Positions 44,230 to 56,470 of a stretch of DNA of 64,000 nt are shown here, piece after piece. The stretch lies in assembly GCF_023055435.1 (NCBI RefSeq), contig NW_025963902.1, forward strand, positions 2,539,815-2,603,814. Reading direction: 5' to 3'. Position 1 is the first letter of the stretch. The number at the start of each line of letters is the position of its first letter. The DNA comes from Haliotis rufescens (lineage: Eukaryota). The notes beneath the pieces are model-generated. The model was not told the DNA's origin, made no database searches, and saw only the letters and a program-made list of their open reading frames with translations. Position numbers and translations under genes: made by a program.

Positions 44230-45500
44230 ATGACCTGTAAATCTTAATGTCTTGTAGAGGTCAAGTAAATGTCCTGTATGTAACCTGTAAATGTCCTGTA
44301 TATGATCTGTAAATGTCCTGTATATAACCTGTAAATGTCCTGTATATGACCTGTAAATGTCACATAAATGTTCTTAAATTACCTGTAAATGTCCTGTATA
44401 TAACTGTAAATGTCCTGTATATGACCTGTAAATGTCCTGTATATAACCTGTACATGTCCTGTAGATGACCTGTAAATGTCCTGTATATAACCTGTAAATG
44501 TCCTGTATATAACCTGTAAATGTCCTGTATATAACCTGTAAATGTCCTGTATATGACCTGTAAATGACCTGTAAATGACCTGTAAATGTCCTGTAAATCT
44601 TAATGTCTTGTAGAGGTCACGTAAATGACCTGTAAATGTCCTGTATATAACCTGTACATGTCCTGTATAGGACCTGTAAATGTCCTGTATATAACCTGTA
44701 AATGTCCTGTAAATGACCTGTAAATGTCCTGTATATAACCTGTAAATGTCCTGTATATAACCTGTAAATGTCCTGTATATAACCTGTAAATGTCCTGTAT
44801 ATGACCTGTTAATGTCCTGTAAATCTTAATGTCTTGTAGAGGTCACGTAAATGTCCTTACATGACCTGTACGTGTCCTGTATATGACCTGTAAATGTCCT
44901 GTATATAACCTGTAAATGTCCTGTACATGTTCTGTATATAACCTGTAAATGTCCTGTATATGACCTGTAAATGTCCTGTATATGACCTGTAAATGTCCTG
45001 TATATAACCTGTAAATGTCCTGTATATGACCTGTAAATGTCCTGTAAATGACCTGTATATGACCTGTAAATGTCCTGTATATAACCTGTAAATGTCCTGT
45101 ACGTGTCCTGTATATAACCTGTAAATGTCCTGTATATAACCTGTAAATGTCCTGTAAATGACCTGTATATAACCTGTAAATGTCCTGCATATAACCTGTA
45201 AATGTCCTGTATATAACCTGTAAATGTCCTGTATATGACCTGTAAATGTCCTGTATATAACCTGTAAATGTCCTGTAAATGACCTGTATATAACCTGTAA
45301 ATGTCCTGCATATAACCTGTAAATGTCCTGTATATAACCTGTGAATGTCCTGTAAATGACCTGTATATAACCTGTAAATGTCCTGTAAATGTCCTGTATA
45401 TAACCTGTAAATGTCCTGCATATAACCTGTAAATGTCCTGTATATAACCTGTAAATGTCCTGTAAATGACCTGTAAATGTCCTGCACATGTCCTGTAAAT
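44230..45500. repeat. Minisatellite with a 22-bp unit made of two 11-bp halves, 'cctgtaaatgt' and 'cctgtatataa', and about 58 copies. It lies in the ASL intron and abuts the donor of exon 45516-45575.
   Basis: Direct count. The three minus-strand ORFs at 44826-45626 are artefacts, except their first ~20 codons, which are the real ASL exon. Confidence 0.9.
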
Positions 45501-45515
45501 GTAGATGTAAATTAC

Positions 45516-45575
45516 CTGCAGGTCCTTGTTATAGGTGCTGGGAATCCCCTTCAGGGACATCATGAACCCCGAACA
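45516..45575 (-). CDS. ASL: ASL exon: [20 protein letters not shown]
   Basis: Human: [20 protein letters not shown]. Acceptor 'catgttgcag|tgttcg', donor 'ctgcag|gtaatt'. 60 nt, phase 0 at both ends. Confidence 0.9.
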
Positions 45576-46039
45576 CTGCAACATGACGTACAATACATCT
45601 GTCATGGGACTAAGGGAGTAATACAATCATCCCGAACACTGCAACATCACGTACAATACATCTGTCATGGGACTCATCACACAAGTAAGGGATTTAACCC
45701 CATGCTGCTTTCTAATTACCCTTTATTGATTCTATTAGGACTCGTTGTTCAAGTGCTACACTGGCAGAACAAGGGAGTAATTCAACCATCCCTATTTATC
45801 ACAGTTTAATTTGACTCATTTAAAAAACCAATCACTTCAAAAACGACTTTTCCTAAAGTAACCCATAAATTGAAGTAGTCATGAGAGTGATGAGTGCATG
45901 TTGTTTATGCTACAGTCAGCAATATTCCAGCTATATCATGGTGGCCTGTAATAGTTGAGTCTAGGCCAGGCAGACCAGTGACTGCAAGCAGACTTCTGGG
46001 GACTTACAGTACTCCATAATCACTGCAGGCACAATGACA

Positions 46040-48090
46040 CTGATAATGACATGGCTACTCTACCACATACACTGATAATGACATGGCTACTCTACCACAT
46101 ACACTGATAATGACATAGCTACTCTACCACATACATTGATAATGACATGGCTACTCTACCACATACACTGATAATGACATATCTACTCTACCACATACAC
46201 TGATAATGACATGGCTACTCTACCACAAACATTGATAATGACATAGCTACTCTACCACAAACATTGATAATGACATGGCTACTCTACCACATACATTGAT
46301 AATGACATGGCTACTCTACCACATACATTGATAATGACATGGCTACTCTACCACATACATTGATAATGAAATGGCTACTCTACCACATACATTGATAATG
46401 ACATGGCTACTCTACCACATACACTGATAATGACATGGCTACTCTACCACATACACTGATAATGACATATCTACTCTACCACATACACTGATAATGACAT
46501 GGCTACTCTACCACAAACATTGATAATGACATAGCTACTCTACCACAAACATTGATAATGAAATGGCTACTCTACCACATACATTGATAATGACATGGCT
46601 ACTCTACCACATACATTGATAATGACATAGCTACTCTACCACATACATTGATAATGACATGGCTACTCTACCACATACATTGATAATGAAATGGCTACTC
46701 TACCACATACATTGATAATGACATGGCTACTCTACCACATACACTGATAATGACATGGCTACTCTACCACATACACTGATAATGACATGGCTGCTCTACC
46801 ACATACACTGATAATGAAATGGCTACTCTACCACATACATTGATAATGACATGGCTACTCTACCACATACACTGATAATGACATGGCTACTCTACCACAA
46901 ACACTGATAATGACATGGCTGCTCTACCACATACACTGATAATGAAATGGCTACTCTACCACATACACTGATAATGACATGGCTACTCTACCACATACAT
47001 TGATAATGACATGGCTGCTCTACCACATACACTGATAATGACATAGCTACTCTACCACATACACTGATAATGACATGGCTACTCTACCACATACATTGAT
47101 AATGACATGGCTACTCTACCACATACATTGATAATGACATGGCTACTCTACCACATACATTGATAATGACATGGCTACTCTACCACATACATTGATAATG
47201 ACATGGCTACTCTACCACTTCACTGATAATGACATGGCTACTCTACCACATACATTGATAATGACATGGCTGCTCTACCACATACACTGATAATGACATG
47301 GCTACTCTACCACATACATTGATAATGACATGGCTACTCTACCACATACATTGATAATGACATGGCTACTCTACCACATACATTGATAATGACATGGCTA
47401 CTCTACCACATACATTGATAATGACATGGCTGCTCTACCACAAACATTGATAATGACATAGCTACTCTACCACATACATTGATAATGACATGGCTACTCT
47501 ACCACATACATTGATAATGACATGGCTACTCTACCACATACATTGATAATGACATGGCTACTCTACCACATACATTGATAATGACATGGCTACTCTACCA
47601 CATACACTGATAATGACATGGCTACTCTACCACATACATTGATAATGACATGGCTGCTCTACCACATACACTGATAATGACATGGCTACTCTACCACATA
47701 CATTGATAATGACATGGCTACTCTACCACATACATTGATAATGACATGGCTACTCTACCACATACATTGATAATGACATGGCTACTCTACCACATACATT
47801 GATAATGACATGGCTGCTCTACCACAAACATTGATAATGACATAGCTACTCTACCACATACATTGATAATGACATGGATACTCTACCACATACATTGATA
47901 ATGACATGGCTACTCTACCACATACACTGATAATGACATGGCTACTCTACCACATATATTGATAATGACATGGCTACTCTACCATATACATTGATAATGA
48001 CATAGCTACTCTACCACATACACTGATAATGACATGGCTACTCTACCACATACACTGATAATGAAATGGCTACTCTACCACATACATTTC
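46040..48090. repeat. Satellite with a 32-bp unit 'ctgataatgacatggctactctaccacataca' and about 64 homogeneous copies. It lies in the ASL intron and starts at the donor of exon 48086-48170.
   Basis: The 32-bp period was measured from 46041, 46073 and 46105. Unit variants include cattgat/cactgat and atggctac/atagctac/aaatggctac/atggctgc. Confidence 0.95.
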
Positions 48091-48170
48091 CAAAAAGTCT
48101 TCCCGACTTTCCACGGATTAGTTCCAAACTGTCCGAGTTTTTCTTCTGGGGCATCAGGCTGCTCCCGGTG
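48086..48170 (-). CDS. ASL: ASL exon: (S)[28 protein letters not shown]
   Basis: Human: [29 protein letters not shown]. Acceptor 'catcgacag|caccggg', donor 'ggaaat|gtatgtgg'. 85 nt. The track ORF 48075-48272 on this strand is in a different frame and is an artefact. Confidence 0.9.
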
Positions 48171-55041: not shown

Positions 55042-55431
55042 GGACTGGGTTGATTTGCTGTGTAGTCAAATCAAGACACAGCCTGATTCAAGCAAAAAGG
55101 AAGCCAGCGTATGCTCAGATTAAATCACAAGAACAACCATATGTCTCAGTGAACATGTGCCATAGCTTTACAGTCTCATCTCCTTAATACACTGTTTCTG
55201 TACCAGGCAATGGTAGGGTTCTCAAAAGATATGCCCAGAGCATGACTCATTTGATTTCAGTGATCATTTAGTGTACTAAAAATAGACACACATTAAGTGA
55301 CATTATTGTTTGGCTTGTTTGTTCTGGTTGCTGGAAAACACTACACTCAATAAACAATTGGCAAGTAAATAATCATATCTGGAACTGACAATTCAGTGAA
55401 TTGATATTGTGACTGTAGCGGCCATAAAATT

Positions 55432-55620
55432 TCTGAGTCCCGTGATGGGATTCGAACCACGGTCCTGATGATCAGAGGTCGGACACCTTGTCCATGTGAC
55501 CAAAGAGGTTAACCCCGTCAGCAAGCTGACAAGGTAAGGATGTCATCTGTGGGATGACTCCACGCCCTGCTACATGAGCAACTATGTCATCGGGGTCTGA
55601 AGACACACAATAAACCATGT
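55432..55620 (-). mobile_element. tRNA-derived SINE family 4. The reverse complement contains '…ggaccgtggttcgaatcccatcacgggact'. A second copy lies at 57222-57372.
   Basis: The two copies share 'tttc.gagtcccgt.atgggattcgaac.acgg.cct..tgatc…gatgtcatctgtggga…gccct.cta.a..aac'. Confidence 0.55.
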
Positions 55621-55750
55621 CAGCAAGCTTGACCACTCGATCCATGATCACCTCTTACGACCATCATAGGTTGGTGGGGGCCAATCCAACCTGGATTCCC
55701 CAAATGGGCGACTCGCATTGAGCTGACATTCTCTTCATCAGTGTACTCAC

Positions 55751-55905
55751 GACTTAGCCCTGTTGAGGATGACGCTGATGAAGTCGGTGAGGTAAGTGCG
55801 GAGCTGCAGCTGGGCATCTCTCATCCACAGCCTCATGTCCGTGGCCACCTGGTCATTGCGGCTCCGGCCCGTGTGCAGCTTGCCTCCTGCTGCACCGATC
55901 AACTC
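55751..55905 (-). CDS. ASL: ASL exon: [51 protein letters not shown](S)
   Basis: Human: [53 protein letters not shown]. Acceptor 'gaatgtttcag|gagttgatcgg', donor 'gctaagtc|gtgagtac'. 155 nt. Confidence 0.9.
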
Positions 55906-56470
55906 CTGAAACATTCACACCATCGTCACCTGCACTGATGCAGCTCTTAATTTAGTCATCCTGCTGCATGATCAACTCCTGAAACATTCACACCATCGTC
56001 ACCTGCACTGATGCAGCTCTTAATTTAGTCATCCTGCTGCATGATCAACTCCTGAAACATTCACACCATCGTCACCTGCACTGACGCTTCTCTTAATTTA
56101 GTCATCCTGCTGCATGATCAACTCCTGAAACATTCACACCGGCGTCACCTGCACTGATGCAGCTCTTAATTTAGTCATCCTGCTGCACCGATCAACTCCT
56201 GAAACATTCACACCATCATCCCCTGCACTGACGCTTCTCTTAATTTAGTCATCCTGCTGCATGATCAACTCCTGAAACATTCACACCATCGTCACCTGCA
56301 CTGACGCTTCTCTTAATTTAGTCATCCTGCGGAATGATCAACTCCTGAAACATTCACACAAGCATGTCTATCGTCACCTGCACTGACATGTTTCTTAATT
56401 TAGCTATCTTGTTGCACCGATAAACTCCTGAAGCATTGACAAAACAATGTCCATCGTCTCCTGCACTGAC
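55890..56470. repeat. Tandem array with a ~72-bp unit and about 8 copies. On the minus strand each unit reads 'gagttgatcatgcagcaggatgactaaattaagagctgcatcagtgcaggtgacgatggtgtgaatgtttcag'. That is the intron 3' end (pyrimidine tract plus the AG acceptor) followed by the first ~22 nt of ASL exon 55751-55905.
   Basis: The period was measured from 55891 to 55963 and then recurs. The exon start 'gagttgatcggtgcagcagga' matches the unit start 'gagttgatcatgcagcagga' with 3 mismatches. Confidence 0.9.

Follow-up and report, generated by a model that had tools for sequence, protein, structure and literature searches.

Four introns of the argininosuccinate lyase (ASL) gene in the window (the whole 64-kb stretch of Haliotis rufescens DNA analyzed here) carry tandem arrays that reiterate a splice junction. 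How did such arrays come to lie exactly there, and how is the gene able to tolerate them? The initial annotation treated the phenomenon as unknown, but minisatellites whose first monomer lies across an exon-intron boundary have been documented in human F7, CBS, IFI6, LMNB2 and PDGFA (PMC1557585), and it is the presence of four in one gene that is unusual. Our analysis shows these to be locally born, junction-reiterating minisatellites that slippage acting on short introns would probably account for, with no need of a dedicated seeding mechanism.

The ASL gene and the anatomy of its arrays

ASL lies on the minus strand, from an ATG at 60575 to a stop codon whose end is at 38988, and comprises 16 coding exons and 15 introns in a span of 21,588 bp (CDS 1416 nt). 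The translated 16-exon model matches the annotated H. rufescens ASL P0121 (471 aa) with no mismatch, and Pfam finds the Lyase_1 and ASL_C2 domains in the protein. The gene and the four exons that adjoin arrays, whose boundaries in the initial annotation are all identical to those of our independent splice-site refinement, are as follows.

38988..60575, minus strand, ASL gene from ATG to stop (exon mapping and splice-site refinement)
55751..55905, minus strand, coding exon 5; acceptor gaatgtttcag|GAGTTGATC, the acceptor and first 21 nt being repeated in the array upstream
50228..50342, minus strand, coding exon 10; last 29 nt and donor CAG|GTCAGT repeated downstream
48086..48170, minus strand, coding exon 11; donor AAT|GTATGT
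45516..45575, minus strand, coding exon 12; donor CAG|GTAATT

Arrays in the window were called with Tandem Repeats Finder and their register was read from in-register prints. Those at the ASL junctions are as follows.

55885..56486, minus strand, 73-bp array of about 8 units, occupying most of intron 4 (56577-55906)
49008..50256, minus strand, 61-bp array of 20.5 copies (20 whole units, 93% match) at the 5' end of intron 10 (50227-48171)
46037..48088, minus strand, 32-bp array of 64 units (95% match), running from the first base of intron 11 (48085-45576)
44265..45518, minus strand, 11/22-bp array of more than 50 copies (1254 bp), running from the exon 12 donor in intron 12 (45515-43072)

All four arrays are head-to-tail, intronic in the gene model and in register with a junction, in agreement with the initial annotation, which had them abutting or overlapping splice sites. 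That four introns are affected is likewise correct; that the four are consecutive is not, since they are numbers 4, 10, 11 and 12 of 15 and only 10-12 adjoin one another. The array at exon 5 lies where it was described, with a period of 73 rather than 72 bp. Together the arrays contribute about 5.1 kb, or roughly 24% of the ASL span.

Although all four are junction-derived, exon sequence is amplified in two of them, as had been proposed. The 61-bp unit consists of the last 29 nt of exon 10 and the first 32 nt of intron 10, and its copies retain the ancestral exon states GTC..CTC. On the acceptor side, the 73-bp unit joins the last 52 nt of intron 4 to the first 21 nt of exon 5; every unit includes a donor-like site, CAG|GTGACG, and divergence is highest in the units most distant from exon 5. 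The 32-bp unit begins at the donor G, intron position +1, and overlaps the exon by 0-3 nt. The 11/22-bp array is built of the units caggacattta, caggttatata and caggtcattta and overlaps the exon by 3 nt, and the true exon 12 donor, CAG|gtaatttaca, resembles one further member of this 11-bp family.

Outside these introns, tandem repeats make up a large share of the window, and large arrays are present in intergenic DNA as well.

Distribution of the arrays in Haliotis and other molluscs

In an independent assembly, all four arrays recur in H. cracherodii at the same junctions and in the same register, and the copy numbers differ. The 73-bp array has about 8 copies in H. rufescens vs 14.5 in H. 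cracherodii (L001 8815-9893), the 61-bp array 20.5 vs 23.1 (L001 15188-16598) and the 32-bp array 64 vs 31.1 (L001 17164-18158), and the 11/22-bp array measures 1254 bp vs 258 bp (L001 19061-19318). Such sharing at different copy numbers excludes an assembly artefact and demonstrates turnover; in addition, the arrays include unit variants specific to one or the other species. H. cracherodii also shares two non-junction repeats of the gene, the 17-bp array of intron 1 (19.5 copies, L001 4817-5149) and the low-complexity tract of intron 7 (L001 13037-13242).

The ASL genes of H. rubra and H. asinina have none of the four arrays, and dating by orthologous introns, which the initial annotation had suggested, therefore places their origin in the rufescens/cracherodii lineage. 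The H. rubra and H. asinina introns are 243 and 153 bp (intron 4), 623 and 571 bp (intron 10), 1492 and 1171 bp (intron 11) and 545 and 770 bp (intron 12). In these outgroups the sequence next to each junction is homologous to the corresponding array unit, with the start of the 32-bp unit corresponding to the outgroup intron start (gtatgtggaagagtagttatgc), and no copies of the units were found outside the arrays in the window or at seven other loci.

H. rubra ASL has junction duplications of its own: two very recent ones, of 46 bp at the exon-2 donor (L002 4066-4155) and 33 bp at the exon-9 acceptor (L002 13970-14036), each in 2 copies that are 100% identical, and one of about 40 bp at the exon-5 acceptor that was spotted by eye while junctions alone were inspected. 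None of the roughly 19 repeats in ASL of Littorina, Pomacea, Pecten and Patella is at a junction. The enzyme is 96-97% identical in H. rubra and H. asinina and about 75% identical in other molluscs.

The introns themselves are old. The four with arrays occupy identical positions in H. asinina (by exact threading) and H. rubra (by exon mapping), and H. asinina already has all 15 positions, as do Littorina, Pomacea and Pecten, whose genes have the same 16-exon layout. In the tandem genomic duplication model of intron gain, the duplicated segment contains AGGT (reviewed in PMC3443670). The ASL arrays resemble that model in that AG|GT is repeated and a duplication carrying splice-site sequence is hidden from the mRNA by the spliceosome. 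They differ in that no new intron is gained and existing ones are merely lengthened, and intron gain at AGGT is rejected for ASL because all four introns were already in place in the relatives.

Decoy splice sites and known junction minisatellites

The dozens of in-register decoy splice sites that the initial annotation envisaged are borne out by counts. The 61-bp array has 12 decoy donors identical to the true one (CAG|GTCAGT) and 7 of the form CAT|GTCAGT; the 32-bp array has 32 identical (AAT|GTATGT) and 21 AGT|GTATGT; the 11/22-bp array has about 47 weaker sites of the CAG|GTYAT type and one identical CAG|GTAATT; and the 73-bp array has 7 decoy acceptors. A reading-frame check predicts that splicing at a decoy of the 73-, 61- or 32-bp array would introduce a premature stop codon, with loss of the resulting transcripts. 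Since the exon model equals P0121, the annotated mRNA uses the exon-adjacent sites, and the decoys are probably silent, judging solely by that annotated protein.

The closest human parallel is the 37-bp VNTR in intron 7 of F7, the first monomer of which consists of 4 nt of exon and 33 nt of intron and which is present in 5-9 copies (Borensztajn et al. 2006, PMC1557585). Its authentic donor is followed by identical pseudo-donors, and experiments showed that only the most upstream donor is used, in a 5'-to-3' scanning-type selection (PMC1557585). IFI6 (6-16) intron 2 has 25 pseudo-donors and the CBS intron 13 VNTR 15-20 repeats, and in both genes the two nearest pseudo-sites are used too, giving in-frame isoforms; LMNB2 has a 100-bp repeat and PDGF an 81-bp repeat in intron 4, and in both the authentic donor alone is used (PMC1557585).

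Like the F7 VNTR, the abalone arrays are intronic, have a unit at or across the boundary and, on the donor side, present an authentic donor and then identical pseudo-donors. With the other human cases they share a border-spanning first unit, a splice site repeated many times and the capacity to cover most of an intron. However, F7 has its 5-9 copies in one intron, whereas abalone ASL reaches 20 and 64 copies and an exon portion of 29 nt, and most of its decoys are predicted to lead to premature stops rather than to in-frame isoforms as in IFI6 and CBS. Furthermore, the human genes have a single array each, while abalone ASL has four, three on the donor side and one on the acceptor side.

Within the 61-bp array, 12 boundaries between units (...ctttgtcacgctctcggacgcatacag|gtcagt) place a 3' splice-site motif directly against a 5' splice-site motif. 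Recursive splice sites, or ratchet points, are found in Drosophila Ubx and in long vertebrate genes, where they are single and conserved, lie in very long introns and have been shown to be used. The abalone boundaries are similar in form, a pyrimidine-rich stretch and cag followed by a regenerated gtcagt donor, but these candidates arise incidentally, through the copying of an exon whose last letters are CAG, and the intron that holds them measures 2 kb. They are absent in H. rubra and H. asinina and so are not conserved beyond the sister species.

Origin of the arrays and the role of chance

The history that we consider probable would have begun after the lineages of H. rubra and H. asinina had branched off, in the ancestor shared by H. 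rufescens and H. cracherodii. Short direct repeats there would have given rise to short tandem duplications through replication slippage or unequal exchange, each duplicated segment spanning, or beginning at, an ASL splice junction; further events of the same kinds would have expanded them to copy numbers from 8 to over 100, and the arrays would still be turning over independently in the two species. Suitable direct repeats are present: AGCTTTG at exon -29 and intron +33 for the ends of the 61-bp unit, CAGGA for the 73-bp unit and, in the outgroup form of the exon 12 donor (CAG|gtaatgtaCAGGaca), CAGG repeats 11 nt apart. At its far end, the 61-bp array of H. cracherodii continues in colinear alignment with the ancestral intron after agctttg, the motif also found at exon -29, and on sequence grounds this is the R-y-R signature of slippage. 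The array end points thus fit ordinary slippage or unequal exchange, and no sequence feature favours the R-loops or stalled spliceosomes that the initial annotation put forward as seeds.

How improbable is it that all four should be at junctions? Three further repeats in ASL are not.

59562..59700, minus strand, 17-bp array of intron 1, separated from both junctions by more than 800 nt
52413..52785, minus strand, low-complexity tract in mid-intron 7, G-rich on the plus strand
41924..42042, minus strand, 59-bp duplication of intron 14 (2 copies, 98% identity), with 178 nt between it and the donor

We placed each unit at random in an intron of ancestral length and scored it as a junction event if it was ≤3 nt from a junction. 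With an ancestral intron of only 153-243 bp, the 73-bp unit has a chance of 0.48-0.70 of spanning or abutting a junction; for the 61-bp unit, whose ancestral intron was about 600 bp long, the chance is 0.13-0.20. In introns as short as these, such duplications are much likelier than the initial annotation supposed, although a residual excess remains. Of the 7 repeat events in the rufescens/cracherodii lineage, 4 are junctional vs 0.8-1.2 expected (P = 0.001-0.006), in a gene that was picked after the pattern was seen, and the same caveat attaches to the joint probability of 1e-4 to 1e-3 that all four large arrays are junctional. The lineages outside that pick have 2 junction events of 9 vs 0.94 expected (P = 0.24, not significant), and all lineages pooled have 6 of 16 vs 1.8-2.2 expected (P = 0.003-0.007). 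The cluster is nominally more than chance predicts; we suggest that it reflects a very high rate of minisatellite birth and expansion in this genome acting on introns whose original shortness would have made junction-spanning duplications common.

These numbers, the independent H. rubra duplications at the exon-2 donor, exon-9 acceptor and exon-5 acceptor, and the control molluscs with no junction repeat leave some scope for a genuine bias toward junctions in Haliotis, that is, a mutational process that seeds tandem duplications preferentially at exon-intron junctions, for example through transcription- or splicing-coupled DNA damage or replication stalling at an exon/intron chromatin boundary. 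It predicts introns that grow from their own splice sites, and several break points do use the junction's own CAG or CAGG as the short direct repeat. We nevertheless think such a process rather unlikely. ASL was chosen for its pattern and the unchosen lineages have no significant excess, the third H. rubra event came from looking only at junctions, and detection favours junction duplicates up to about two-fold because they stay recognizable longer, one copy being held by selection. Nor does any sequence feature indicate a specific mechanism, and the window's large arrays are intergenic too.

It is more doubtful still that the arrays have been selectively kept for a role in ASL expression. Reiterated 5' splice sites might recruit U1 snRNP and so aid splicing efficiency and protect from premature cleavage, the cag|gtcagt boundaries might serve as recursive sites for stepwise intron removal, or decoy use might tune ASL output via nonsense-mediated decay. 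The AG|GT form of the 61-bp boundaries with the pyrimidine-rich stretch before it, the premature stops that unproductive splicing requires and the persistence of the arrays in two species are all in keeping with this; but copy numbers differ two- to five-fold between the sister species, the 11-bp array is nearly absent in H. cracherodii, H. rubra, H. asinina and other molluscs make their similar enzymes with no such arrays, and the units drift and are homogenized as in neutral arrays. Rolling-circle reverse transcription of excised lariat fragments, re-inserted at the junction, as the initial annotation also proposed, is very improbable. Its sole support is the 32-bp unit that starts exactly at intron +1, while a lariat circle would run from +1 to the branch point and not merely 32 or 11 nt, and the colinear far end of the H. 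cracherodii 61-bp array is as expected for in-place duplication; moreover, lariats hold no exon sequence, which excludes this origin for the 61-bp and 73-bp units with their 29 nt of upstream and 21 nt of downstream exon. We give equally little credence to an assembly artefact or a dispersed satellite or transposon inserted by chance beside the exons, for which the abundance of tandem repeats in the window is nothing specific and against which stand the matching arrays of H. cracherodii and the homology of the units, which across the window and seven other loci are confined to their arrays, to local exon and intron sequence in the outgroups.

The arrays, born in place and in our view by slippage, are probably neutral. 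The spliceosome would stay with the exon-adjacent site: at the donors, the one farthest upstream in a row of identical 5' splice sites, and at the acceptor, the one paired with the real exon, the last of several identical acceptors. By analogy with human F7, the choice of the most upstream donor would explain how abalone ASL tolerates such arrays.

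The ASL gene and its junction arrays

The argininosuccinate lyase (ASL) gene runs on the minus strand from 60575 to 38988 in 16 coding exons, which were found with a tblastn probe (a human ASL sequence, used for probing only) and refined by an exhaustive donor/acceptor search, the first coding exon being located via the annotated N-terminus. The model was validated against the annotated H. rufescens ASL protein (P0121), which its translation reproduces exactly over 471 aa. The exon-assembled protein is 100% identical to this entry, "argininosuccinate lyase-like [Haliotis rufescens]", with next-best protein matches in H. 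cracherodii (99%), H. rubra (97%) and H. asinina (96%), and it contains the Lyase_1 and ASL_C2 domains. The exons called in the initial annotation at 55905-55751, 50342-50228, 48170-48086 and 45575-45516 coincide exactly with those of the refined model.

The window is eukaryotic. Minisatellites are very abundant in it, and tandem repeats form a large share of its length. Four arrays in ASL lie at splice junctions, as the initial annotation had claimed; they were found by TRF and their register at the junctions was confirmed. They sit in introns 4, 10, 11 and 12, and thus the description of these introns as consecutive is not borne out.

Tandem arrays at ASL splice junctions (TRF and in-register print)
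55885-56486: 73-bp array; about 8 units, each composed of the opening 21 nt of exon 5 and the final 52 nt of intron 4, occupying most of that intron
49008-50256: 61-bp array (intron 10); 20 whole units, each composed of the opening 32 nt of intron 10 and the final 29 nt of exon 10
46037-48088: 32-bp array (intron 11); 64 units, starting at the donor G of exon 11
44265-45518: 11/22-bp array (intron 12); starts at the exon-12 donor, CAG|gtaatttaca, which is itself unit-like

The proposal that two of the arrays amplify the junction itself, exon sequence included, also holds, with 29 nt of exon 10 in the 61-bp unit and 21 nt of exon 5 in the 73-bp unit. Other ASL repeats lie away from the junctions (59562-59700, 52413-52785 and 41924-42042). 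The gene is 21.6 kb long in H. rufescens vs 14.3 kb in H. asinina; junction arrays can make up about one quarter of gene length and most of the size difference from relatives. All three reading frames of the 11/22-bp array (44265-45518, minus strand) are open over hundreds of codons.

Other repeats and elements in the window
5-7934: satellite array, about 7.9 kb; some 48 copies of a 162-163-bp unit, 326-bp higher-order periodicity, continuing off the left end
19302-20922, 22875-25131, 26150-26584, 35877-36267, 36611-36881: more large minisatellites outside recognised genes (units of 17/34, 29, 32/48/80, 16, 30 and 26 bp)
21853-22604 (+) and 31578-34434 (+): degraded mobile elements, one with a Tc1/mariner-type transposase (HTH_Tnp_Tc3_2) and one a retroelement with reverse transcriptase (RVT_1)
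27973-28518: 52-bp array
28493-30632 (minus): KCTD7-like gene copy, two exons, BTB_2 and KCTD_C domains
35031-35243 (+), 60641-60892 (-), 58723-58960 (+), 57293-57541 (-), 63148-63432, 48693-48932 and others: dispersed short repeat, on both strands, in and outside ASL introns

H. cracherodii shares two of these minisatellites, those of 30 and 26 bp downstream of ASL (26655-26860 and 25971-26310 of its ASL locus, L001). The dispersed short repeat is probably a SINE: it translates as ...RVVRLADLVDACHR...SYSWNIAECGVKQQ... and has a tRNA-like GGTTCGAATCCC stretch. ARAGORN and Rfam made no call on it, and Rfam and tRNA scans of the window gave no match.

The 52-bp array beside the KCTD7-like gene was considered as a possible fifth seeding event, here at the border of a coding sequence. 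Homology of this copy to the H. rubra gene ends at ...ATCATATTT (about 28529); the array's first unit takes the place of the conserved last codon (D) and the stop, and adds 11 codons to the reading frame. The homologous array of H. rubra lies 3.1 kb past the KCTD7-like stop; a deletion therefore brought the array to the coding sequence in the window copy, and the case was rejected. The copy shares only 97% identity with P0241, the KCTD7-like protein annotated in H. rufescens. Relative to ASL, the H. rubra gene is oriented the other way, and the window copy looks like a rearranged or decaying duplicate.

Age and origin of the arrays

The orthologous ASL loci of H. cracherodii (L001), H. rubra (L002) and H. 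asinina (L003) were compared after mapping their exons, by exact protein threading except in H. rubra, for which blastn coordinates were used because its protein, marked low-quality, could not be threaded exactly. All four arrays are present in H. cracherodii with unchanged register and different copy numbers.

Array sizes in the two species
73/74-bp array: H. rufescens about 8 copies; H. cracherodii 14.5 copies
61-bp array: H. rufescens 20.5 copies; H. cracherodii 23.1 copies
32-bp array: H. rufescens 64 copies; H. cracherodii 31.1 copies
11-bp family array: H. rufescens 1254 bp; H. cracherodii 258 bp

The H. cracherodii arrays also have predominant unit variants of their own. The presence of the same arrays in both species rules out an assembly artefact, and the differences show that turnover is ongoing. 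Neither the arrays nor their units were found in ASL of H. rubra and H. asinina, where the corresponding introns are short, measuring 243 and 153 bp (73-bp site), 623 and 571 bp (61-bp), 1492 and 1171 bp (32-bp) and 545 and 770 bp (11-bp). The ortholog comparison, which the initial annotation had suggested as a means of dating the amplifications, thus places their origin in the lineage ancestral to H. rufescens and H. cracherodii. Junction-proximal sequence in the outgroups is homologous to the array units, and so all four arrays were born in place.

As to how they arose, the initial annotation had invoked replication slippage at R-loops or stalled spliceosomes, or rolling-circle amplification of excised lariat fragments. 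These special seeding mechanisms are unsupported, and the lariat origin is contradicted, because two of the units contain exon sequence, which lariat-derived circles cannot give; nothing in the arrays calls for an RNA intermediate. Insertion of whole GT...AG units was suspected from the end of the H. rufescens 61-bp array ("...catacag"), and was rejected on finding that the H. cracherodii array stops after "agctttg" and from there is colinear with intron that can be aligned to the outgroups; the H. rufescens end is a secondary change beside a SINE-like insertion. AGCTTTG also occurs in exon 10 at -29, and the resulting repeat-unit-repeat pattern is the one expected if short direct repeats slipped or exchanged unequally. 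Comparable short repeats go with other units: CAGGA, in the case of the 73-bp unit, occurs at exon +17 to +21 and again some 52 nt farther upstream, in the ancestral intron, and for the 11-bp unit the ancestral CAG|gtaatgtaCAGGaca holds CAGG twice, 11 nt apart.

Junction placement and chance

Chance was modeled by placing each unit randomly in an intron of ancestral length, and a placement counted as a junction event if the unit crossed a junction or came within 3 nt of one. The resulting chances are not small, because the ancestral introns are short.

Chance of junction placement
73-bp unit: 0.48-0.70
61-bp unit: 0.13-0.20
32-bp unit: 0.06-0.13
11-bp unit: 0.02-0.05

For the four large arrays the joint chance is 1e-4 to 1e-3, and in the rufescens/cracherodii lineage four of seven events are at junctions vs 0.8-1.2 expected (P = 0.001-0.006), in a gene that was picked after the pattern was seen; one such case in a genome with many array-rich genes is not startling. 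In H. rubra and H. asinina, lineages that the initial annotation had not seen, two of nine events are at junctions vs 0.94 expected (P = 0.24). Both are in H. rubra, and as perfect duplications (100% identity) they are striking in themselves: 46 bp x2 at the exon-2 donor, from -17 to +29 (L002 4066-4155), and 33 bp x2 at the exon-9 acceptor, ending at tcag| (L002 13970-14036). Another, seen by eye at the H. rubra exon-5 acceptor (about 40 bp x2 with a 6-bp indel and 10 nt of exon copied, L002 about 9350-9433), was left out of the counts because only junctions were inspected. All three are very recent and independent of the H. rufescens arrays. Control ASL loci from Littorina, Pomacea, Pecten and Patella, with exons placed by exact protein threading, have no junction repeats among about 19 minisatellite-type repeats, those nearest a donor being 25 and 31 nt away.

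A modest real junction excess in Haliotis is therefore possible, not established. The broader proposition, that abalone of the north-east Pacific, and perhaps Haliotis as a whole, seed tandem duplications preferentially at exon-intron junctions, with introns growing outward by reiterating their splice sites, we consider unlikely.

Two features of the other molluscan loci are recorded here. Littorina saxatilis ASL has long (AC)n or (TG)n tracts 19-30 nt downstream of three donors (L005 546-675, 7610-7684 and 15675-15743), which recall the dinucleotide tracts described near splice sites in fish introns. Patella caerulea ASL (L004) has only 3 coding exons vs 16 in Haliotis, Littorina, Pomacea and Pecten, a sign that introns were lost on a massive scale in that lineage or copy.

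Decoy sites and splice-site choice

The initial annotation's claim of dozens of in-register decoy splice sites is substantiated. The 61-bp array has 12 decoy donors identical to CAG|GTCAGT and 7 of the form CAT|GTCAGT, the 32-bp array has 32 identical to AAT|GTATGT and 21 AGT|GTATGT, the 11/22-bp array has about 47 weaker CAG|GTYAT donors, and the 73-bp array has 7 decoy acceptors. Computed translations give a premature stop from any decoy used in the 73-, 61- or 32-bp arrays; some decoy donors of the 11-bp array are in frame and would insert 15-48 residues with no stop codon. Upstream of the real acceptor stand 7-14 copies with the same first 21 exon bases, and in H. cracherodii the copies that follow the real donor are identical over 61 nt, exon portion included. 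In H. rufescens the last 29 nt of exon 10 (50228-50256; compare L001 15188-15216) carry two synonymous changes, GTC to GTG and CTC to CTG, found in no array unit nor in H. cracherodii, H. rubra or H. asinina; the ancestral GTC..CTC is kept in the 61-bp units and in the exons of those three species. The H. rufescens exon end is thereby less like its own decoys, and selection against decoy similarity could be the cause, but the concentration of changes (two of three exon differences in 29 of 115 nt) is not significant.

In human genes, minisatellites whose first monomer straddles an exon-intron boundary have been described as a class (PMC1557585), including F7 intron 7 (37 bp), IFI6/6-16 (25 pseudo-donors), the CBS VNTR (15-20 repeats), LMNB2 (100 bp) and PDGF (81 bp). 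By mutational work the F7 pseudo-sites are functional but silent, and donor choice follows a 5'-to-3' scanning-type rule by which the most upstream donor is taken (PMC1557585). Such a rule would make the three donor-side abalone arrays tolerable; in the acceptor-side 73-bp array, the acceptor that belongs to the real exon would presumably be the one chosen. The arrays also resemble the tandem-duplication model of intron gain (PMC3443670), but unlike it they create no intron, since all intron positions are shared with distant molluscs. A search of the literature yielded no report of such junction arrays specific to abalone. The ASL arrays are thus a real, well-defined cluster of a known kind of element, and what is new is the mollusc host, copy numbers far higher than in the human cases and the inclusion of an acceptor-side array.

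Every one of the arrays is a natural experiment in how a splice site is chosen, with 12 to 32 copies of identical sequence following the real donor. If a genome-wide excess is real, it would link splice junctions mutationally with minisatellite birth; if there is none, the locus still cautions gene annotation and variant calling in repeat-rich mollusc genomes. Should preferential seeding at junctions prove true, junction-spanning minisatellites would be enriched several-fold genome-wide, abalone genes would hold tens of perfect decoy donors and acceptors for the spliceosome to ignore, and abalone would offer a natural system in which to study, for acceptors and donors alike, how one of many identical splice sites is chosen.
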